Shown: piece by piece, positions 1,921 to 57,316 of the stretch
Layout of the letters: the number at the start of each line of letters is the position of its first letter
How positions within the stretch are numbered: position 1 is the first letter of the stretch
Assembly (NCBI GenBank): GCA_964511375.1
Contig: CAZEEW010000001.1
Coordinates: 70,512-134,511 of the forward strand
Length of the DNA stretch: 64,000 nucleotides
From: an uncultured Gammaproteobacteria bacterium
GTDB lineage: Bacteria > Patescibacteriota > Patescibacteriia > Magasanikbacterales > GWA2-37-8
Direction: 5' to 3'
The notes under the pieces: generated by a model
Told to the model about the DNA's origin: nothing
The model's database searches: none
The model's input: only the letters and a program-made list of their open reading frames with translations
Translations under genes and position numbers: made by a program

Positions 1921-2661
1921 ATGAAAAAAATATTTGCATTAACTTTGTTAATGTTATTAATCTCCGGCTGTTCCTGGAATTACGGAAACGAAAATGGCAG
2001 CATTAAGAAAAGCAATTGGCAGCTAAAGAAAGAAGCATTAGAGTACCGGGATGTGGGTACCCGGACCGATACCGCGCTATACTATCCAGTAATGACTAAT
2101 TACGAAAAGGCTGAAACAAGCTTTAATAACGATGTAAAGAATTTAGTAGTGCAAGAACGTGATGCATTTTTGGTTGAGTTGGACGGAATAGAATTGCCAC
2201 GCGTAACTGATCCGGGTAGTTATTTTAGAGCGGATTACGAAATATTGAATAGCCAAGATTTCTTAAGTATTAAATTCGTTTTTGATACCTATGTCTCTGG
2301 TGCCGCCCACCCTAATAGTTTTACTAAAGCCTATAATTTTGATTTAATTACTGGACGACCTATAAGTTGGACAGAAATATTTAAACCCGGTTCAAATTAC
2401 TTACAAGTAGTTAGCGACAAGTCTGGCCAAAAACTTCTGGCAAAAAACAACGAAGAAGAATTCACAGACATTGTTTCAATACGAGAAGGAACAAAACCAA
2501 ACCCAGAGAATTTTAAAACTGTAAACATTGCAGATAAACGGTTGATCATAACCTTCGATGCCTACCAAGTGGCTTCATATGCAGCGGGACCACAGGTAAT
2601 TGAAATACCTTTTTCTGATTTGTATGAAATTTTGAAGGATGAATATGCGACTAAAATATAG
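1921..2661 (+). CDS. Lipoprotein with DUF3298/DUF4163-like (RsiV-type) domains.
   Basis: It has a signal peptide with a lipobox (LLISGCSW). The body is similar to DUF4163/DUF3298 proteins, for example YEILNSQDFLSIKFVFDTYVSGAAHPNS. Confidence 0.55.
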   Translation: MKKIFALTLLMLLISGCSWNYGNENGSIKKSNWQLKKEALEYRDVGTRTDTALYYPVMTNYEKAETSFNNDVKNLVVQERDAFLVELDGIELPRVTDPGSYFRADYEILNSQDFLSIKFVFDTYVSGAAHPNSFTKAYNFDLITGRPISWTEIFKPGSNYLQVVSDKSGQKLLAKNNEEEFTDIVSIREGTKPNPENFKTVNIADKRLIITFDAYQVASYAAGPQVIEIPFSDLYEILKDEYATKI

Positions 2662-2691: not shown

Positions 2692-3660
2692 ATGATAATT
2701 TTTATCAACGGCGAAGACACCTTTAGAAGTCGGCAGTATCTGCAGGAACAGGTATATAAATTTAAACAGGCACGTGACCCGGCAGGGTACAACGTTGTTT
2801 TTGTTGATGCTCTAAAAAGTGAGCCGGGGAAAATTTTAGGCGAAATTTTGTCAGCCCCTTTTCTGGCGGAAAAGAGACTTGTTGTTGTGGAAAACCTGTT
2901 GTCTCTTAGCGACAAAGATTTCCTCGCTGCGATCATTGAGCGAGTTGAAAAAAATGATTTTCCAGAAAGCAATGTCATTATTTTTTGGCAAGGTCAAAGT
3001 AAAAGCAAGGTAAAGGAAGCCGAAATCTTGGAAAAAACTTTAGCTAAAATAAAATATAGTAAAGAATTTGTTCCACTTACCGGTCAACAATTAATAACGT
3101 GGATAAAAAGCGAACTCGCTAGCCGAGGTGGAAGCATGAGCTCACCTGCCTTGTCTTACATAACAGCAAATTTCAGTGGAGACATGTGGACATTGAATTC
3201 TTTAATTGACCAACTGATCGCTTACAAATCTGGTAAAGAAATTGAAACAAAAGACGTCAGTGAGTTTTTAGATGAAAAAGTTGATGACAATGTATTCAAC
3301 ATGGTTAATGCCATAGTGACCGGCAACAAGAAATTAGCCCTTAAGCTTCTGCAAGAACAGCGCCGTTTGGGCGAGGATGATTTTAAGTTGTTTGGACTTC
3401 TAATTTGGCAGTTTCGGGCGTTATTATCTTTACGGGATCTTTACGAAACTGATGACAGAATAACGAGCGACAATGCCGCAAAAAAAACCGGACTCAACCT
3501 CTTTGTTGTGAAGAAAAATTGGCCACTTATTAAAAATTTTAGTAGCCAAAAATTAAAAGAATTATATGACGGCTTAATCCAGATGGACTTAAAAGCAAAA
3601 ACAGGTCAAGCTGACCTGTCTCTAGCGTTGGACTTATTTGTCGGAACATTAAAAGATTAA
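2692..3660 (+). CDS. holA: DNA polymerase III delta subunit-like protein.
   Basis: Its length is about 320 aa and its N-terminal architecture is typical of HolA. It sits downstream of polA. Similarity is weak and the call rests on pattern recognition. Confidence 0.55.
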   Translation: MIIFINGEDTFRSRQYLQEQVYKFKQARDPAGYNVVFVDALKSEPGKILGEILSAPFLAEKRLVVVENLLSLSDKDFLAAIIERVEKNDFPESNVIIFWQGQSKSKVKEAEILEKTLAKIKYSKEFVPLTGQQLITWIKSELASRGGSMSSPALSYITANFSGDMWTLNSLIDQLIAYKSGKEIETKDVSEFLDEKVDDNVFNMVNAIVTGNKKLALKLLQEQRRLGEDDFKLFGLLIWQFRALLSLRDLYETDDRITSDNAAKKTGLNLFVVKKNWPLIKNFSSQKLKELYDGLIQMDLKAKTGQADLSLALDLFVGTLKD

Positions 3661-7346: not shown

Positions 7347-8429
7347 CTACACCTCTTCCATTTGTGGTTTTTCTAAAGAGAGTGGTTCAATATTTTTTTC
7401 GCCATCCGTAATGCGCATGACGTCCTTGTCTATCTTATTGAATTCTTTGTAAGCAGAGTTATAAGTATTTACTGCTGTACCGAGATTGTTTCCGAGTTTT
7501 TTTAAATACTCGTCATAGGCCAGAAGGTGTTTCCCCAGCTCCTCGACCCGTTTCCGAATTTCTTTCGCCGACTCCTCTATCTGTAAGGCGCGTAAACCCT
7601 GCAAAACAGTTTGCAAATAGGCCAAGAAAGAAGTCGGAGAAACAATAATGACATGTTTTTCTCGGAACGCGTATTCAATTAAATCATGGGTGTTGATTTT
7701 TAAAGTTCCAACTTTATTGATTAATAAGTCGTAGTAAATTCCTTCGGCCGGAATAAACATGAAAGCAAAATCCATTGTTCTTTCCTTTGGTTTAATATAT
7801 TTGCTGGTTTCATCGATGCGGTTCTTCAAATCCTGGACAAAACTTTTTTCCAAATCTTTCTTCCGATCCGGATCTTTTTCTTCGTTTAGGCGATTATAAT
7901 TCTCTAGACTAAATTTGGAGTCGATTGGTATGACTTTGTCTTTTACAAAAACTGCGGCATCAACAATGTCTCCGTCAGTAAATTTATATTGCATGGAATA
8001 ACTTCCGGGCGGCAAAACATTTTTTAAAACATTTTCTAAATAGTATTCCCCTAAGATGCCACGATGCTTTGGGTTTTGTAAAATGTTTTCTAGATTTTCT
8101 AACTGTTCAGCAAAACCAATCACTTGTTTGTTGGTTTCGTCTAATTTAGTCAGTTTTTCGGTGACGTCGGTAATAATTTTAGTGCTATTTTGGAATTGAG
8201 ACTGGATTGTCCGGTTTAAATTAGTTTGCGTATCATTTACAACGCGATGCGTTTCAGAAATTTTTTGGTCAATTTGTCGGTTTAGCTCCTGGATCTGGTT
8301 CTGTAACATCACAAACAGGTTGTTGTCAGATTCGGATTGGGGTTTTTTAAGAGAGAGTAGTAAGAAGACAATTGCGGCGAGTCCAACGCCCAAAAGAATG
8401 ATGAGCGCAATTAGTAGTGTCTCTTGCAT
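7347..8429 (-). CDS. rmuC: DNA recombination protein RmuC.
   Basis: It has an N-terminal transmembrane segment, a long coiled-coil and the RmuC C-terminal nuclease-like region (FMFIPAEGIYYDLL, VIIVSPTSFLAYLQTV). Confidence 0.8.
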   Translation of the reverse strand: MQETLLIALIILLGVGLAAIVFLLLSLKKPQSESDNNLFVMLQNQIQELNRQIDQKISETHRVVNDTQTNLNRTIQSQFQNSTKIITDVTEKLTKLDETNKQVIGFAEQLENLENILQNPKHRGILGEYYLENVLKNVLPPGSYSMQYKFTDGDIVDAAVFVKDKVIPIDSKFSLENYNRLNEEKDPDRKKDLEKSFVQDLKNRIDETSKYIKPKERTMDFAFMFIPAEGIYYDLLINKVGTLKINTHDLIEYAFREKHVIIVSPTSFLAYLQTVLQGLRALQIEESAKEIRKRVEELGKHLLAYDEYLKKLGNNLGTAVNTYNSAYKEFNKIDKDVMRITDGEKNIEPLSLEKPQMEEV

Positions 8430-8487: not shown

Positions 8488-9846
8488 TTGAAAGTTGCTA
8501 TGGCGGATAAATTTAAACCTGTTCCGGAGGAAATGGCCGGCATGGAACAGGAATTAACTGAACAAGAATTTCAAAAATTAGAGAGACGTCACCAGAGAGT
8601 AGCGCTCACTGCTCTGTTTGAGCGACTAGCTCTGTCTTCGCGCCACTCTGAACTAACAGGCAATTTAAAGGCTGATTTCAATGTTTTGCTCGGGTCGATG
8701 TCAAAAATTTATGGAGAAAAGATCGGTGTCCTCCGACATAAAATCTTTGCAGACAGGGAATTTTTGACGAGGATGTATCATGTATATTTGGCTCTATTAA
8801 AAGAAAAAGAGTCAATTGACAAGGTCGCCTCTGATGTTTTCCACGATCATTTTAGGGAAATTCGTCATCCACCTACGCCACATGAATGGGGTAAAAAGGT
8901 CTTCGATTTATGTACTGGCAGTGAAAACAAAGGTGGGGCCACCTTAGAATTTAAGGAGGGTTTTGCTGTGTTTGCTTTATCTGATCGTGAAGACTACGAA
9001 TATTTTTTAGAAAGCATGCGCACAAGTACAGACATAGTTGAAAGAAGTTACGGCGTTTTTATTTCTAACTTTACAATTCCCGGTTATAATGAAATGAATC
9101 TTATTGTCGTAAATGGCGGCGTTTCTAGCCTTCTAAACGACACTTCTTCATTGGTATCACATGAAAAGCAGCATTTTATTAATAGGCGGCTAGTGAGCGA
9201 TGCAAACCGCCCGATGTTTGATCGGGTTGAATCGGACTATCTTAAGGCCCGCGGCGTGTCTGGTGAGACGCTTCGCAAAAGACTGTCTGAATCGGCTCTG
9301 ATGCAGCACATTAAGAATGAGGTGTTGGCTTTTTTGCGCGATGGAACTGGTGGTAGAGAGGAGGTTCGCTGGAACGAGGAGTCTGTGCCGGTGGGGATTT
9401 ACAATTATCTTCAGGGCTCTTGCTACGCACCCTTATTCGGAATGCTACCAAAAGCGCTACGTGTTAAAACAGACGAAGCTTTGCGGGAAATTGCCGTTGA
9501 AATGAATCTGCTAAAAGGATTTACTACACTGCCTGAACGCGCAGTTTTAGCAAATCATTTAATTTCCGTGCCGCTAGTTGACATGGCCGAAGAGATTAGT
9601 AGGTTTGCTAAGTTCTATACCAAGCGACTGCGAAGGTGCAATGTTATAAGGAGTTCCGTTAGAGAATACGGTCCAAAATTTAAGGACCCTGACCTTGAAA
9701 AAGAAGCCTTTAAGACCGCTAGAGCATTTGAAAGTCACATCGTTGACCCAAGAAACGTTGAGGACATTAGAGATCAGGTTGAAGGTGTGTTTAAGAAGTA
9801 CGGTGTTGCCTTCAAAGTAAGGCAACCCCTTGATTTTTCCACGTAA
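8488..9846 (+). CDS. Hypothetical protein of 452 aa.
   Basis: It is a long ORF with host-like composition. I recognised no domain. Confidence 0.5.
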   Translation: MKVAMADKFKPVPEEMAGMEQELTEQEFQKLERRHQRVALTALFERLALSSRHSELTGNLKADFNVLLGSMSKIYGEKIGVLRHKIFADREFLTRMYHVYLALLKEKESIDKVASDVFHDHFREIRHPPTPHEWGKKVFDLCTGSENKGGATLEFKEGFAVFALSDREDYEYFLESMRTSTDIVERSYGVFISNFTIPGYNEMNLIVVNGGVSSLLNDTSSLVSHEKQHFINRRLVSDANRPMFDRVESDYLKARGVSGETLRKRLSESALMQHIKNEVLAFLRDGTGGREEVRWNEESVPVGIYNYLQGSCYAPLFGMLPKALRVKTDEALREIAVEMNLLKGFTTLPERAVLANHLISVPLVDMAEEISRFAKFYTKRLRRCNVIRSSVREYGPKFKDPDLEKEAFKTARAFESHIVDPRNVEDIRDQVEGVFKKYGVAFKVRQPLDFST

Positions 9847-9872
9847 ATATAATAAAATTTGTTGGTTCAGTC

Positions 9873-30942: not shown

Positions 30943-30977
30943 CTAAGTGAGATGCTGGCTCGGAGAGGAGGTGAGCG

Positions 30978-31208
30978 ATGAGCCAGTTCAAGCGAGGTCT
31001 ACCACCCGACCTCAAAGCAATGGGTGGCCAGGTTTTCTGCCGGGAGCGGTTTGGTACAATCGTCGGTTACTCAACCGACGCCGCTCGAGGCAGACGGACT
31101 CTTCTTGTTCTCCAGGTCGTTCCTGGGTTCGGGGCGCAGGTGCTCCGGATTTCGGAGAATGACCACGATCTCTCGCGTGTGAGACTGGCGACGGCTTCGC
31201 CATGCTAG
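30978..31208 (+). CDS. GC-rich small hypothetical protein of 76 aa (island A).
   Basis: A strong SD (GGAGAGGAGG) lies 6 nt before the ATG. Third-position GC is elevated. It is preceded by a nine-codon upstream ORF (MLARRGGER) whose stop overlaps the start as ATGA. It could alternatively be a structured RNA. Confidence 0.35.
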   Translation: MSQFKRGLPPDLKAMGGQVFCRERFGTIVGYSTDAARGRRTLLVLQVVPGFGAQVLRISENDHDLSRVRLATASPC

Positions 31209-31313
31209 CCCCACGCGATAAGAAGGAGGCCTCGTGGCCTGCCTGATTCTCTTTGGCGCCGTTAAACACCTCGCGGCGCCCCTTCATTAAAAAAAATAAT
31301 TAGCCGCCCTGAT

Positions 31314-32539: not shown

Positions 32540-32822
32540 ATGCGCTAGAATAACAGCTTTTTAATTATTTGTCAAATACATATTTACAATCTCATGCCTG
32601 GACTATTGCTAGGTATCCAAAAGTCTGCTATTATAAACGATCATCTTCAAAAAAAGAAGATGTTCAAATAATATTTACAAGCTCCTTAAAATTCGCAAAA
32701 AAGGCAAATTCAATCTGGCGAACCAACATTTTCTTTTAATTTTAGAAAAAAATGCTGGCTCGCCAGAAGGTCGTTCCTCACGGTGGGGGATGACTGGAAG
32801 GTAAGTTGGAAAGGAAAAAGAG

Positions 32823-33986
32823 ATGGAGTCGGTCCGTCTCTTGTCCTGGAGCTTCGTTCACGTGCTCCAGATGATTCTCAACCTCGCCCGGCGCGGCGGG
32901 GTCGACTTCTCCAACCCCGGTCTCCTCCGTGAGGCCCTGAACATCCGGGCCTGGGAGGCCCTCGACGAGTTGGGGCGCGACCCCAAACACTTGTGGCGGC
33001 TTACGCCGCCCCTGCACCAGGTTTACTCTCGGGCCCTGGCTTACGGAGCTGGGGACAGGTGTAGCCATAATCAGGTCTACATGGCAGCCGAACAAGCCAC
33101 CAGTCTCGCCGAGGTAGCACTCGGTGAGGTGGGGTACAGTTGGCTGTCGCGGCGTCAGGTTGCTGCTCAGCTGATCTACGCACTGGCGAATGAGATCCAG
33201 GGCGATCCGCACGCCCTGGACGCAGCCGAGCGTCAGTCCCGCTCCGAGGCCTTCCTCCGGGAGTTCTACGGGTGCGGGTGGGACGACCCCGACCCCGAGC
33301 TCCAGAAGGAAGTTGAGTACTACGAGCGCCAGCTCGGGGTGCTCTACTGCCTCAGGGCGATCGCGGTGCTCACCGAGCATCCCGAGCTCGACCTCGTCGA
33401 GCTGACCCGCCAGGGCCTCATGAAGTACGGGGTCGTGGACACCCGGGGCCGCCGGGTGTGCTACTGGTGCTCCGGTGCCCCCTGCGTCTGCGGTGGGCGG
33501 AAGGGCGGGATGAAGGCCCGCCGGCCGGAGATCACCTCCGACCTCGTCTGGGCCCGGGGACTGCCGGAGATGGACCAGCACATGGTCGTCTACGGCGTGT
33601 CTCGGAACTCGGCCATCAACGCCCTCGCGGGTGTGGTTCGCTCCCTGTCGGAGGACGGTGGGGAGTACGGATGGATCAACCTCATGTCCCGCTGTGGCGG
33701 GACGAACCGGGGAATCCAAGAGAGGCTCGGCTGCCTCTACCTCGGCAGCAGCCGGCACCCCCGCATGGCGGCCAAGAAGTTCGACGCCGAGGGCGTGCCT
33801 CTCATCGAGGGGCTCTACTCGGAGGCGGCGGACGCCGTCGTCTCCTGGCCCTGCCTCGTGACACAGGCCTTCGGTCTGCAGTTCACAAGGTCGGTCTTAC
33901 TCGGTCTCCAGCACATGGCCGATGGCGCCGGGGTCACGCTCGAGACCCCAGACGATCTGACCCGGACCATCCCGGTCCGCGAGTAG
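32823..33986 (+). CDS. GC-rich hypothetical protein of 387 aa (island B, gene 1).
   Basis: It has a strong GC3 codon bias in this frame. The SD-like AGGAAAAAGAG precedes the ATG. It has a Cys cluster (CYWCSGAPCVCGG). I recognised no domain. The overlapping antisense ORFs are composition artifacts. Confidence 0.55.
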   Translation: MESVRLLSWSFVHVLQMILNLARRGGVDFSNPGLLREALNIRAWEALDELGRDPKHLWRLTPPLHQVYSRALAYGAGDRCSHNQVYMAAEQATSLAEVALGEVGYSWLSRRQVAAQLIYALANEIQGDPHALDAAERQSRSEAFLREFYGCGWDDPDPELQKEVEYYERQLGVLYCLRAIAVLTEHPELDLVELTRQGLMKYGVVDTRGRRVCYWCSGAPCVCGGRKGGMKARRPEITSDLVWARGLPEMDQHMVVYGVSRNSAINALAGVVRSLSEDGGEYGWINLMSRCGGTNRGIQERLGCLYLGSSRHPRMAAKKFDAEGVPLIEGLYSEAADAVVSWPCLVTQAFGLQFTRSVLLGLQHMADGAGVTLETPDDLTRTIPVRE

Positions 33987-34187
33987 TCGCCTCGCCGGCT
34001 GTCCTTCGGGGCGGTCGGTGGGCATGGTTTAGAGGTGGGGCGTTTCTCTTAGGGGAGACGCTTGCGCCTCCCCTATCCCAGTATTTCTTAATTCAAGGAA
34101 TGTTGAGATAGGAGGCTCGTAGACCGACGTGTTTTCGTTGGGCGCTCGGTTGAGCGCACGGCGAAACACCAAACAGAGGGAGGACAA

Positions 34188-34547
34188 ATGGTCCACAAGG
34201 ATCTCAGAATCGAGCTGGTGCTCGGCGGCGTCACTTTTATCATCGTTGGCTTCCTCGAGGCAGGCGAGGAAGTGATCACCGGTGATGAAATGAAGCGTCG
34301 GCTGGCGGCCCGCTCCTTGCGGCTCATCCACGGGGCGGATTTCGAGCACTTCTCTCGCTACCGCGAGGATTTGCCGAAAGAACTCCGACCTCACCTACTG
34401 GCCACAGACCAGTGTGCTCCAGAGTGCCAGAAAGAGACGACCGTCTTCGAGTTCTTCGAAGATGTGGAAGTGTGGCACTCGTTCTGGCACAACCTTTGCG
34501 GCCCGACATGGGGCCACAACGTCTTGGCGGTGTGCTGTTGTGTGTAG
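34188..34547 (+). CDS. GC-rich hypothetical protein of 119 aa (island B, gene 2).
   Basis: The SD is GAGGGAGG, 5 nt before the ATG. It has GC3 bias. It is followed by a 14-bp GC hairpin. Confidence 0.45.
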   Translation: MVHKDLRIELVLGGVTFIIVGFLEAGEEVITGDEMKRRLAARSLRLIHGADFEHFSRYREDLPKELRPHLLATDQCAPECQKETTVFEFFEDVEVWHSFWHNLCGPTWGHNVLAVCCCV

Positions 34548-34555
34548 GAGGGAGC

Positions 34556-34600
34556 GGTGCCGGCGGGGGACCCCCCGCCGGCACCCGTAGTCCCTTTTAA
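34556..34600 (+). terminator. Strong GC hairpin terminator closing island B.
   Basis: The stem is GGTGCCGGCGGGGG-a-CCCCCGCCGGCACC (14 bp), followed by a T-rich tract. Confidence 0.6.
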
Positions 34601-51632: not shown

Positions 51633-51815
51633 GGCTAAAATTTGAGATAGAATAACAATATAAAACAAAAATCCTACACTTTAAAGTATAGGATCTTATG
51701 TATTCCATTTAGCTTCTCTGTAGTCTTTAGCTAACAAGTGTTTGCTAGTTAAGGGCCGGGACAGAGAAGCTGTCCGCGGGTTAAAGAGTATGGGAACAGC
51801 TAGGTGGTTCGTCGA

Positions 51816-52037
51816 TCACCGCCTTCGCTGTAGAACAGCGAGGGTAGCGATTGAGAAGAACACACCTCCCACAACCGTCACGCGCTTAGGTTCGCGCGCA
51901 AGATCGTGGAACAAGCCGTCCCCGGTAAGGTCACCGCTCGCGCAGGCCAGGAGTCCGCAGATGATGCTTGCGAACACGGCTCCAGCCACGAGAGCGAGGA
52001 CTAGCCGAACGATCGCTTGATCACACTGCTGGGTCAT
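51816..52037 (-). CDS. GC-rich small membrane protein of 73 aa (island C).
   Basis: The SD is GGAGGGG, 6 nt before the ATG on the minus strand. It has one or two transmembrane helices (VRLVLALVAGAVFASIICGLLACA). The longer ORF to 52091 starts in the AT-rich flank without an SD. Confidence 0.4.
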   Translation of the reverse strand: MTQQCDQAIVRLVLALVAGAVFASIICGLLACASGDLTGDGLFHDLAREPKRVTVVGGVFFSIATLAVLQRRR

Positions 52038-52120
52038 TTGACCCCTCCATGCCCCCGCAGGGGCAAGTTGGAATAGACAAGATTTAATCACGAAAATGAG
52101 TTATAGTCAATCACATTTTT

Positions 52121-54730: not shown

Positions 54731-55255
54731 ATGAAAGCACTACTCGAAAAAAAGACAAGAATAATTGGTATTGACCCCGGTTTTGGTCGGGTTGGTTATG
54801 GCGTAATAGAGAAGGTAGGGAGGAGAGATTGGCAAGTAGTGGATTATGGTTGCATTGAAACCGCTAAGGGGAAAAAGTTTGTCGATCGCTTAACAGAAAT
54901 ATTTGACGAGCTAAATGTTTTAGTTAAAAAATACAAACCAGAAAGAATGGCGGTTGAAAAGCTATTCTTTTTTCGTAATGTAACAACCGCAATTGAAGTC
55001 GGGCAGGCCCGAGGGGTAATATTACTTACCGCTGTTCAGAATGGACTGGAGGTAGACGAATTTACGCCGCTTCAGGTAAAGCAAGCCATTACTGGCTACG
55101 GTAAAGCAGAGAAGCCGCAGATGCAGAAAATGGTAGCTATGATATTAGGTATCAAGGAAAAAATAAAATCCGATGATGCGGCCGACGCCCTGGCGATTGC
55201 TTTGTGTGCCGGACAGAGTCTGTGGATGAATAAACTAAAAGGAGTAAAACCGTGA
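54731..55255 (+). CDS. ruvC: Holliday junction resolvase RuvC.
   Basis: The N-terminus is IIGIDPGFGRVGYGVIE. I chose an internal start because the ORF track start at 54692 overlaps yebC. Confidence 0.85.
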   Translation: MKALLEKKTRIIGIDPGFGRVGYGVIEKVGRRDWQVVDYGCIETAKGKKFVDRLTEIFDELNVLVKKYKPERMAVEKLFFFRNVTTAIEVGQARGVILLTAVQNGLEVDEFTPLQVKQAITGYGKAEKPQMQKMVAMILGIKEKIKSDDAADALAIALCAGQSLWMNKLKGVKP

Positions 55256-55262
55256 AGCACGG

Positions 55263-55291
55263 TTGACAATTTGTCTAATTTTAGCTAAAAT
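55263..55291 (+). promoter_or_regulatory. Sigma70-like promoter upstream of the island D lipoprotein gene.
   Basis: The elements are TTGACA, a 17-nt spacer and TAAAAT. Confidence 0.45.
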
Positions 55292-55398
55292 CACATTCAT
55301 ACATTGGACGTGATTTGTTTTTTAATAGCGAAAATTGCTGTTAAAAAACATGTCTCGTCCAGGGCGGACGGGAGTAAACCCGCAACGGGAGAGTTCAG

Positions 55399-55932
55399 AT
55401 GAAGAGCCTGGTGTCGTGTTTCGTGCTGGTCGCCCTGTTCCTCAACCTGTTCGGCTGCATCGAAGCGGCCGAGTTCAACCACTCCGACGCGACGACCGTG
55501 TCGGAGGACGTGGCTAGCGTCCAAGACGTCTCCTTGCCAGAGGAGAACGACATCGCCATCAAGATTCCCCGGGCGGAGTGCCCGGAGGCAACAGCCGGAC
55601 CATACACGGTCCGAGTTGTGATCGACGCCACGACCTGGGTCAGGATCTCGTCCGAGGTAGAGCGTGTCTTCCTCAGCCGGGAGCTCGATGCAGATCGGAT
55701 GGACACGGCCGAAATTCGCGTCGAGTCCGCCGGGTGCGATTTCCAGTTCGCCATCAGCAACAACTCCACGGAGGTCGCGCACGTCTCTGTGGAAGCCCCG
55801 ACAGGGGTTTCCATCACCATCCGGTACGCCCGTGGCGGATCCGAGACCGTTCCCGCGAACGGTTTCAAGCAGGCGATCGTCTACACGGTCGGTAATGTGA
55901 AGTACTACTTCCATTACCAGCCGCCGGGCTGA
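55399..55932 (+). CDS. GC-rich putative lipoprotein of 177 aa (island D).
   Basis: The SD is GGGAGAG, 6 nt before the ATG. It has a signal peptide with a lipobox (LFGC). It has GC3 bias. The antisense ORFs are composition artifacts. Confidence 0.55.
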   Translation: MKSLVSCFVLVALFLNLFGCIEAAEFNHSDATTVSEDVASVQDVSLPEENDIAIKIPRAECPEATAGPYTVRVVIDATTWVRISSEVERVFLSRELDADRMDTAEIRVESAGCDFQFAISNNSTEVAHVSVEAPTGVSITIRYARGGSETVPANGFKQAIVYTVGNVKYYFHYQPPG

Positions 55933-56056
55933 GCACCAAGGGCGGCAAGTCGCCGCCCGCGAGGCTGCCGCATCGTACTGGCCCTCGTATTCATTATTAA
56001 TCCTTTGGGGTTGGTAATGAGTACTTACTTCCAGTACGCTTGCGAATAAAAATAAA

Positions 56057-56089
56057 GGACTTCCCAATCGGGGAGTCCTTTTGACTTTT
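56057..56089 (+). terminator. Rho-independent terminator after the island D gene.
   Basis: The hairpin is GGACTTCCC-aatc-GGGGAGTCC (9 bp, with one G-U pair), followed by TTTTGACTTTT. Confidence 0.7.
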
Positions 56090-56110
56090 CACACATAATT
56101 ATGCTAAAAT

Positions 56111-56587
56111 TTGCTAAATATTATGAAAAAAACCGATAGAAAATTTGTAATAGTGTTACCGAATATTCGCAGCTGCCATAATGTAGGTGCTGTTTTTCGT
56201 ACTGCCGATGGCGCCGGGGTAGATAAAATCTATCTCACTGGCTATACGCCAGACCCATCTCACCCTAAAATGGCGAAAGTGTCGCTTGGTGCAGAAAAGT
56301 CTGTGCCCTGGGAAAAACACTATCAAACAGCCAGGGTTTTAAAGCAATTAAAGGCCGAAGGATACAAAATAGTTGCCTTGGAGAAAACTAGTAAAAGTGT
56401 TAATATGTATTCATGGAAACCAGACTTCCCCCTTGCTTTGATCGTTGGAAATGAAGTAACTGGTGTCACACCAAATATCTTGAAATACTGTGATGAAATC
56501 ATTCATTTACCAATGAATGGCATTAAAGAGAGTCTGAATGTCAGTATCGCAAGCGGTATCGCCATCTATTACATTGCTAATAACTAA
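56111..56587 (+). CDS. SpoU/TrmH-class RNA 2'-O-methyltransferase.
   Basis: It has a SPOUT fold and is 158 aa, with C-terminal IHLPMNG...ESLNVSIASGIAIY. Confidence 0.75.
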   Translation: MLNIMKKTDRKFVIVLPNIRSCHNVGAVFRTADGAGVDKIYLTGYTPDPSHPKMAKVSLGAEKSVPWEKHYQTARVLKQLKAEGYKIVALEKTSKSVNMYSWKPDFPLALIVGNEVTGVTPNILKYCDEIIHLPMNGIKESLNVSIASGIAIYYIANN

Positions 56588-56590
56588 ATT

Positions 56591-57316
56591 ATGCAATCCA
56601 CTATCTCACTTTTTCGTCACCTTTACGAAAAACTTCCTCCCTTATTTCCGGAAGAAACAAAGACCAAGATTAAACACGCCCTGGATCATTTAGAAAATGA
56701 TCCGACCGTTAGTTTAAGTGAAATTGAGGACACGATGGTGATGTTTGGTTATGAGGTGTGGCCTTGGAATCAGGCTTATCGTGAATTCTTGGCTTTAGCC
56801 GAAGGCGAAGTTGGCGAACATTTTTTACTACCCAGACTGAGCCAGGAGCTACAAACAAAATACGAAGATTATAAAGGATATGGAATGTCGCTTCGGGATT
56901 TGCATTCAGGGAATCCAGCTGAGTATTTCACGTCCGAAGAGCGAGTTGAACTCGCTACTGCCCTCGTAGATTTGCAGAATGATTTAAGAAAATATTTAGA
57001 GCACAAGATAATTAGCGAATACCAGACTAAATATTTATCTCGCGTTCAGGAATTTACTAGATTATTAGATGAGATGAGAGCCAGGATTCAAGACTTACGT
57101 AGTTTGGCAGATTCAGAACAAGATCACCCAACACTAGCTGACGAAATTCGACAGCAAATCAAAGCCTTTGAGCATGGACTATGCTTGCTCGGCCCAGAAC
57201 TACGTTATGACGCTGTTCTTGGTTCACCGGAATATTTTCATGGTCGCAAGTCCGAGCTAAACCGCATGCGAGGTATTCATGAAAGTCTGGAAATAGATTT
57301 TTATAACGAAGATTAA
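56591..57316 (+). CDS. Hypothetical protein of 241 aa.
   Basis: I recognised no domain. It is in an operon position with the SpoU gene. Confidence 0.45.
   Translation: MQSTISLFRHLYEKLPPLFPEETKTKIKHALDHLENDPTVSLSEIEDTMVMFGYEVWPWNQAYREFLALAEGEVGEHFLLPRLSQELQTKYEDYKGYGMSLRDLHSGNPAEYFTSEERVELATALVDLQNDLRKYLEHKIISEYQTKYLSRVQEFTRLLDEMRARIQDLRSLADSEQDHPTLADEIRQQIKAFEHGLCLLGPELRYDAVLGSPEYFHGRKSELNRMRGIHESLEIDFYNED

Follow-up and report, generated by a model that had tools for sequence, protein, structure and literature searches.

A fast-evolving, GC-rich lipoprotein gene between ruvC and spoU in a lineage of Patescibacteria

Here we describe a GC-rich island (island D) that lies between ruvC and spoU in a 64,000-nt stretch of DNA from the Patescibacteria, ultra-small bacteria with a presumed lifestyle of attachment to other cells. 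The whole stretch, called the window below, has a GC content of 41.7%; the island carries a single lipoprotein gene, which the original prediction, made from the sequence, had read as an insertion of foreign composition. We compared the island with related loci (L001 to L039), of which 28 were gathered through p241, a lineage-specific gene that follows spoU, and two through RuvC, and with homologous proteins (P0001 and P0002) from an exhaustive HMMER search of 1.84 billion representative proteins. Three alleles, those of the window, L004 and L005, are the basis of all comparative conclusions. L004 is the NCBI metagenome-assembled genome GCA_035289165.1, labelled "Patescibacteria group bacterium", and L006 carries the same allele (0 mismatches in a within-allele comparison of single-nucleotide polymorphisms); L005 is the JGI contig Ga0172379_10043305, and L007 is the same contig. 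An assembly chimera was ruled out, because the independent Logan assembly of SRR5011273 (L001) is 100% identical over 2.1 kb at the locus and orthologous cassettes occur in independent assemblies.

The lipoprotein gene and its product

The region between ruvC and spoU holds the following features (ORF, open reading frame; UTR, untranslated region; GC3, GC content at third codon positions).

55256 to 56122, plus strand: whole inserted unit of 867 nt, from the ruvC stop codon (55253 to 55255) to the spoU ATG (56123); absent from about ten more distant relatives
55263 to 55291, plus strand: predicted promoter P1, TTGACA-17-TAAAAT
55289 to 55323, plus strand: hairpin AATCAC/GTGATT followed by TGTTTTTT, just after the P1 -10 box, as read from the sequence
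55297 to 56067, minus strand: antisense ORF of 256 aa, the gene called in public annotation; a by-product, not a gene
55312 to 55354, plus strand: conserved 17-bp AU-rich leader hairpin (UGUUUUUUAAUAGC ... GCUGUUAAAAAACA)
55355 to 55371, plus strand: conserved GC hairpin CUCGUCC/GGACGRG, at the start of the GC-rich block
55366 to 56302, plus strand: star-like tract by nucleotide site patterns, where L004 and L005 differ from one another as much as either differs from the window; ends near spoU codon 60
55379 to 55391, plus strand: small hairpin sequestering the first three G of the Shine-Dalgarno sequence GGGAG, as read from the alignment
55399 to 55932, plus strand: lipoprotein precursor gene, 177 aa plus stop codon
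55399 to 55458, plus strand: signal peptide and lipobox L-F-G-C, moderately conserved; Cys20 invariant in all three alleles
55459 to 55929, plus strand: hypervariable mature domain, predicted all-beta with about 10 strands; invariant Cys61 and Cys113 (precursor numbering)
55940 to 55958, plus strand: GC hairpin GGGCGGC-AAGUC-GCCGCCC just past the stop codon, invariant in three lineages
55969 to 56044, plus strand: long 3' UTR hairpin of 76 nt and about 29 pairs, conserved with compensatory changes
56054 to 56089, plus strand: predicted intrinsic terminator with T-tract; 12-bp stem (56054 to 56081) with 6 GC pairs
56081 to 56110, plus strand: predicted spoU promoter P2, TTGACT-18-TAAAAT, with a TG extended -10 box; conserved in L004 and L005 and supplied by the insertion

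The ORF at 55399 to 55932 is a real gene, and its predicted length, Shine-Dalgarno sequence, signal peptide and LFGC lipobox were all confirmed. The Shine-Dalgarno sequence GGGAG occupies 55387 to 55391, 7 nt upstream of the ATG; the N-terminus reads MKSLVSCFVLVALFLNLFG and then C, and the signal peptide, which begins MK-SLVSCFVLVALFLNLF, has the expected basic n-region and hydrophobic h-region. GC content at the three codon positions is 0.58, 0.44 and 0.82, a periodicity of GC3 > GC1 > GC2 that is classic for high-GC genes, and the ratio of nonsynonymous to synonymous differences per site (pN/pS) in the sense frame is 0.63-0.84, below 1. The lipobox follows the general pattern [LVI]-x-[GAS]-C with the +1 Cys within the first 15-35 residues, as L-F-G-C20 in the window, L-T-G-C20 in L004 and L-F-G-C20 in L005, its G and C being invariant; the Asn at -4 in the window is a slight departure from the strict PROSITE pattern (PS51257-type). 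Hydrophobic N-termini are also present in P0001 and in the L005 allele, and Cys20 is found in all three proteins once the L005 copy is started at an upstream ATG. Besides the lipobox Cys, two more Cys and about 30 other positions are invariant across the three alleles.

The NCBI and Logan annotations omit this gene and call the 256-aa ORF on the minus strand. It is scarcely credible that this antisense ORF is the real gene, or that the region is a non-coding RNA, although the antisense ORF is the longest of the region and an antisense frame of 208-256 aa is open at all three loci. That frame is codon-aligned with the sense frame and is open solely through the missing sense codons TTA, CTA and TCA; it has its GC peak at codon position 1 and no start signals, and its pN/pS (0.79-1.02) exceeds that of the sense frame in two of three pairs. 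The sense frame, by contrast, has the Shine-Dalgarno sequence, signal peptide, lipobox and conserved Cys, and the non-coding RNA option found no match in Rfam. The antisense gene was therefore ruled out as a by-product of the missing codons. Gene callers trained on host composition put GC-rich genes on the wrong strand; with the antisense ORF annotated in its place, the true protein of 177 aa has no entry in the protein collection.

Exactly two homologues came out of the HMMER search: P0001, with 171 aa and 36% identity (E = 1e-20), and P0002, with 181 aa and 39% identity (E = 6e-17). Both are lipoproteins encoded between ruvC and spoU in related Patescibacteria (L004 and L005). A word-indexed search with the single protein gave no match, and a profile of the three sequences gave nothing beyond these two. 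As the original prediction had said, no domain is recognisable: Pfam, NCBIfam, PHROGs, PADLOC and PDB sequences returned sub-threshold noise only, with DUF6694 matching the signal peptide and Rv3169_fam scoring 16.8 bits. The product is a lineage-restricted two-cysteine lipoprotein without detectable relatives elsewhere. The AlphaFold check proposed with the original prediction, made with AlphaFold2, gave a consistently all-beta architecture with about 10 strands, but poor models, with a predicted local distance difference test score (pLDDT) of 52 from one sequence and 49 from three; the all-beta fold, a Cys61-Cys113 disulfide and surface exposure are therefore putative. Foldseek against PDB gave generic beta-sandwich or jelly-roll matches only (SPRY, galectin, PilC lectin module; E >=3e-3, template modelling score <=0.40), which were not used as evidence.

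The transcription unit

The claim of a self-contained expression unit stands, in that promoter, leader, lipoprotein ORF and terminator are all in the sequence. The predicted sigma70-type promoter P1 was confirmed at 55263 to 55291 with 11 of 12 consensus matches. Four promoter-like sites were found in the region where 3.0 were expected, which is not above chance; support for P1 comes not from this count but from the conservation of its position in two relatives, as L004 and L005 keep the -35 box, the 17-nt spacing and a TA[AC]AAT -10 box although the spacer sequence has diverged. Just upstream of P1, L004 carries a 27-nt insertion relative to the window (9836 to 9862) with a second CGGTTGACA (-35 box).

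The hairpin and U-run at 55289 to 55323 are probably the terminator of the yebC-ruvC transcript; the hairpin at the same site in L004 and L005 is stronger (GCGCTC/GAGCGC, then GATTTGTTTTTT). The predicted P1 start is downstream of the hairpin's 5' arm, and transcripts from P1 would therefore not be terminated there. The leader had been described as AT-rich, and this is true of its first half, whereas a GC-rich block begins at about 55347. The leader is structured (minimum free energy -44.3 kcal/mol, z = -4.4), and the closing pair of the hairpin at the Shine-Dalgarno sequence covaries, as CCCG/CGGG in the window, CCCU/AGGG in L004 and CCCA/UGGG in L005.

Downstream of the gene, the 161-nt 3' UTR has a minimum free energy of -79.9 kcal/mol (z = -9.0) and shows compensatory changes at four pairs. 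The terminator had been predicted as a 9-bp GC hairpin with a T-tract; a strong hairpin and the T-tract are there, but the stem has 12 bp, of which 6 are GC pairs. The terminator is conserved, and the -35 box for spoU falls within its T-tract. Rfam gave only chance-level matches, far below gathering scores, for the UTR elements. The conserved flank motifs of the cassette are GATTTGTTTTTTAATAGC-N9-TGTTAAAARACAWGTCTCGTCCA and GTACTGGCCCTCGTMTTCATTA.

Divergence, insertion and GC content

The mature lipoprotein changes 5-30x faster than its neighbours at the protein level. Between L004 and L005, protein identity is 97% for RuvC, 97% for p241 and 92% for SpoU, and 40% for the lipoprotein; between the window and either of the two, the neighbours share 75-87% and the lipoprotein 33-37%. 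The nonsynonymous divergence (dN) of L004 and L005 is 0.013-0.041 in the neighbours and 0.47 in the lipoprotein, and the synonymous divergence (dS) is 0.53-0.79 in the neighbours and about 1.0, saturated for its own composition, in the lipoprotein. Measured against the older depth of the locus, the omega of the lipoprotein is about 0.3-0.4, which is 5-15x that of the neighbours and not >1.

This divergence is a mosaic. The sliding identity of L004 and L005 falls from about 0.9 in the flanks to 0.40-0.62 in the ORF, and is only 0.77-0.82 in the 3' UTR and the start of spoU. Protein site patterns, counted in the order L004 = L005 against the window, window = L004, and window = L005, are 23:1:2 in ruvC, 14:3:6 in spoU and 53:5:1 in p241, and so follow the genome tree; in the mature lipoprotein they are 34:25:16, star-like, with 41 columns in which all three differ. 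The star-like stretch extends about 180 nt into spoU, where codons 1-60 (56123 to 56302) have a dS of 1.36 and a dN of 0.087 between L004 and L005, as deep as against the window, and codons 61-154 have 0.55 and 0.014. Deep divergence in this conserved 5' part of spoU, which has ordinary composition, means that a tract of about 0.9 kb has a different, older history. The mosaic divergence shows that alleles are exchanged among relatives via homologous recombination, with a probable breakpoint inside spoU near codon 60.

The distribution of the unit bears on its age. ruvC and spoU are adjacent or overlapping (<=~95 nt) in L002, L008, L010, L012, L013, L018, L019, L021, L029 and L030, and the copies in L004 and L005 are themselves GC-rich, at 58.5% (GC3 0.77) and 63.7% (GC3 0.86) in surroundings of 42-44% GC. 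The presence of the cassette in one subclade, together with the tight junction in about ten more distant relatives, indicates that the 867-nt unit was gained once, long ago, on the branch to the subclade of the window, L004 and L005. The insertion between ruvC and spoU claimed in the original prediction thus stands as an old event and not as a recent one; its own synteny test goes against it within the closest clade, where the GC-rich gene is conserved, and only more distant relatives lack the gene. The junction is a recurrent insertion spot across the wider lineage, as three other loci hold unrelated inserts there: a 327-aa ORF in L014 (444 to 1427), a small membrane protein in L022 (about 3200 to 3530), and a 2.4-kb insert with several membrane proteins in L033 (930 to 3376), which includes a GC-rich piece (1058 to 1519, 54% in a 38% GC locus). 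The protein of 241 aa that follows spoU (p241, 56591 to 57316) is present in 30 of 30 related loci at 42-77% identity; it belongs to no Pfam or NCBIfam family and is conserved and lineage-specific.

The composition of the island is atypical. The ORF measures 61.4% GC and not the roughly 65% first estimated; its GC3 bias was confirmed, at 0.82 against 0.35-0.46 in the neighbours yebC, ruvC, spoU, p241 and rpoC. In windows of 534 nt the mean GC is 0.417 with a standard deviation of 0.05, and only 2.1% reach >=0.60. The GC-rich block runs from about 55347 to 55975 at 60-64% GC with sharp boundaries. Outside it, in host-like AT-rich sequence, lie the promoter, the terminator and the leader's first half.

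Such a step, from 41% to 61% GC as the original prediction had required, would commonly suggest recent horizontal acquisition from a high-GC donor, the composition being not yet ameliorated. The GC3 of 0.82, the absence of the cassette from more distant relatives and the presence of further GC-rich islands in the window would also fit that explanation, but it is already largely refuted and we regard it as very improbable. The atypical composition that marks genomic islands is present (GC 61% vs 41.7%; GC3 0.82 vs about 0.38), but the gene is not sporadic among close relatives: homologous GC-rich alleles occupy the same site in L004/L006 and in L005, and with their saturated synonymous sites they contradict the recent foreign origin first implied. 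Protein searches of the 1.84 billion representative sequences and of phages, plasmids and viral contigs revealed no donor family, and a search of viral contigs with the conserved 3' UTR motif gave no match. The site has no mobility genes, no tRNA and no direct repeats. A multi-copy mobile element was ruled out, as the flank sequences are unrepeated elsewhere in the window. An 8-mer, GCTAAAAT, had been reported at both edges: the copy at 56103 to 56110 is there, and the upstream copy lies at 55284 to 55291, not 55283. It is not conserved, the upstream copy reading GACTACAAT in both relatives, which rules out a target-site duplication; as had been suggested, the two copies are -10 boxes. The exchanged tract also carries low-GC spoU sequence, and its donors are therefore low-GC relatives and not a GC-rich organism.

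Amelioration gives a direct test. Of the 37 residues invariant in the three alleles, 24 differ at the third position, where 74% are G/C, and swaps between G and C are frequent at third positions of invariant residues. In codons for the same residue, strong/weak differences are at saturation (observed/saturation 0.355/0.350, 0.197/0.203 and 0.278/0.313), and the statistic of the neighbours gives a per-lineage memory of 0.42 since the split of the window and L004. Even a starting GC3 of 1.0 would have fallen to about 0.62 by now under the neighbours' process, whereas 0.82, 0.77 and 0.86 are observed. Saturation together with GC3 above the predicted value means that the high GC is an equilibrium property of the gene: it is stationary and gene-specific, and not a relic of recent transfer.

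Codon preference in the cassette is strong for both NNC (76-84%) and NNG (69-83%), compared with 50% and 30% in rpoC; ordinary translational optimisation was ruled out, since rpoC favours NNC mildly and NNG not at all. GC3 is not raised in the flanking codons of ruvC and spoU. Because the sharp edges of the block coincide with the transcript, they would be explained best by a GC-favouring pressure on synonymous positions of the transcript itself. Selection acting on synonymous positions or on the mRNA could keep the GC high, through transcript stability, avoidance of AU-specific RNase or AT-binding nucleoid proteins, or slow translation of a secreted protein via rare codons, though we hold this unlikely. 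It fits the stationary GC3, the coincidence of the block edges with structured parts of the transcript, and the preference for both C- and G-ending codons with a third-position spectrum like that of a second GC-rich island, island C. Against it, GC-ending codons are not generally optimal, judging from rpoC, and only strong selection on about 170 synonymous sites could keep GC3 at 0.8 where the background is AT-biased.

GC-biased gene conversion at a recombination hot spot, a process proposed for recombining bacterial genes (PMC4450053), could also have raised the GC, as recombination at the locus is directly indicated and the enrichment is chiefly at third positions, reaching about 50 nt into both UTRs. 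We consider this improbable. The co-exchanged spoU codons 1-60 have an ordinary GC3 of 0.30-0.47; a search for a gradient in the two flanking genes, ruvC and spoU, was negative, ruvC showing no consistent rise in GC3 towards the cassette; the boundaries of the block are sharp; and the island C gene is persistently GC-rich yet not hypervariable. A 40-point excess in GC3 also looks far larger than the effects reported for gene conversion in bacteria.

Island C (32780 to 34600) is the largest GC-rich island, at 60-70% GC, and holds ORFs of 387 aa (32823 to 33986, GC3 0.86) and 119 aa (34188 to 34547, GC3 0.74) with a GC-rich terminator hairpin at about 34556 to 34590. It has no match in Pfam, NCBIfam or PHROGs, and PADLOC gave a JetD-like match below threshold only. 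The 387-aa gene has TrmB as its neighbour in the window, and its orthologues adjoin TrmB in the distant relatives L037, L038 and L039 (TrmB 42-47% identical) and lie 7-26 GC points above their neighbours in each of them. The third-position spectra of islands C and D are alike (A 0.05-0.08, C 0.43-0.49, G 0.34-0.41, T 0.09-0.15). As the island C gene is also persistently GC-rich, a gene-specific GC excess is not unique to island D. It is conceivable, if on balance doubtful, that these Patescibacteria have resident genes, forming a class of their own, which an undescribed locus-specific force keeps over very long times at a stationary, GC-rich codon dialect in genomes of about 41% GC, be it a targeted mutational or repair bias or strong selection on transcripts. 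Island D would be the clearest case of such a class, with its synonymous sites randomised around a GC3 of about 0.8.

Other GC-rich sequences were seen in the window and in one relative. At 30950 to 31290, 340 nt of about 60% GC without codon periodicity lie between the genes for a PilB-like ATPase and a nucleoside deoxyribosyltransferase; they are preceded by a -10-like box, TGGTATACT, have no Rfam match, and could be an undescribed structured RNA. At 51740 to 52100, 360 nt of about 61% GC lie between rpoC and a Memo/PGA_cap gene, with weak codon periodicity and no Rfam match; a 91-aa ORF there (51816 to 52091, minus strand) has a hydrophobic segment ending in the lipobox-like LLAC, and L004 has a 1260-aa radical-SAM/aminotransferase gene at this position instead. 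In L002, a GC-rich ORF of 162 aa (7803 to 8291, 58% in a 44% GC locus) with a weak DUF6016 match separates p241 from pfkB, a place taken in the window by two NUDIX genes. This ORF was examined as a possible third persistent case and had no orthologue in the other loci gathered.

Taken as a whole, we consider it probable, though far from certain, that island D is an old monocistronic lipoprotein cassette which evolves fast, is exchanged by recombination and keeps a maintained GC content. It would go back to a single insertion that, in the ancestor of a small subclade of Patescibacteria, broke into the tight yebC-ruvC-spoU-p241 operon, and would then have stayed at that exact position in at least three species-level lineages, with alleles swapped between lineages through the conserved flanks. 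The insertion would have split the operon, the inserted P2 restoring the expression of spoU. The unit would consist of a promoter, a structured leader (about 100 nt) whose folding partly covers the ribosome-binding site, the lipoprotein, a very stable 3' UTR and a terminator overlapping the spoU promoter.

Several points weigh against this account. Local hypermutation, instead of recombination, could in principle account for the raised divergence over the 5' part of spoU, and the breakpoints are only roughly located. Three alleles preclude a site-model test for positive selection, and with pN/pS <1 relaxed constraint is as compatible with the data as diversifying selection. The transcription start, the use of the terminator and the function of the leader are predictions, and the structure models are poor (pLDDT 49-52), which leaves the fold, disulfide and surface exposure putative. 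Lgt or LspA candidates with the right size and enough membrane segments were not found in the 64-kb window. A second ORF (1921 to 2661, plus strand), of ordinary host composition, has a canonical lipoprotein signal (MKKIFALTLLMLLISGC), and suggests that the organism may well use the lipoprotein pathway.

Comparison with known systems and significance

The cassette resembles the vlsE/vls locus of Borrelia, a variable surface lipoprotein gene that is persistently GC-rich in a low-GC genome (49% in the vls coding region vs 28.6% in the genome), has conserved flanks and varies by recombination (PMC11499132). These shared traits could suggest programmed antigenic variation, as in Borrelia vlsE or Neisseria pilE, or a diversity-generating retroelement, but either is extremely improbable here. 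The vls locus has an array of silent cassettes, whereas blastn and tblastn found no second copy or fragment in the window, in DNA or protein, and protein databases, with the L004 genome included, hold no paralogues. GC skew is 0.52 in vls and -0.015 to +0.036 in the cassette, where runs of GGG and CCC are equal in number and G runs do not cluster. The entire mature protein varies, not discrete variable regions, and this variation is seen between lineages; the predicted fold is all-beta, and VlsE is alpha-helical. As for a retroelement, the ORF has no repeat longer than 12-13 nt in the window, although a reverse transcriptase was not specifically searched for, and the divergence is not confined to a C-terminal variable region.

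Borrelia OspC is a single-copy, allelic surface lipoprotein at a fixed position that is kept by balancing selection and recombination. Like OspC, the cassette has deeply divergent alleles off the genome tree, exchange via conserved flanks and elevated linked divergence; it differs in that its alleles are far more divergent (33-40% identity, three alleles known) and its compositional anomaly has no OspC counterpart. Phage morons are single genes with their own promoter and terminator and an atypical composition that lie between genes adjacent in relatives. The cassette is likewise a promoter-gene-terminator unit between genes that are adjacent in relatives, but it is not in a prophage: its flanks are yebC, ruvC, spoU and rpoC, it has no PHROG, phage or viral-contig match, and it is stably inherited in a housekeeping operon with a maintained composition and is not a transient footprint. 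With an ameliorating genomic island, in the sense of Lawrence and Ochman 1997 as cited in PMC12455944, it shares the compositional step and the absence from more distant relatives; it differs in having no donor, mobility genes, or tRNA or direct-repeat boundaries, and in a composition unmoved despite saturated synonymous divergence. Genes under GC-biased gene conversion (PMC4450053) resemble it in their evidence of recombination and raised GC3, but the excess in the cassette looks much greater, is sharp-edged and does not extend into the co-recombining flank.

An abrupt rise in GC with strong GC3 bias is routinely taken as a sign of recent horizontal transfer, and here that inference fails a direct test: the anomaly of the cassette is old, at a fixed site and at equilibrium. 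The family is nearly invisible in protein databases through wrong-strand calls, and similar cases are probably under-counted. The lipoprotein may act at the cell surface, where relaxed or diversifying selection would bear on it, and most plausibly in contact with a host cell or phage, which makes it a candidate for such interactions and a handle for strain typing. If the maintained GC should prove general, it would raise the testable question of what holds single genes 40 GC3 points off their genome.

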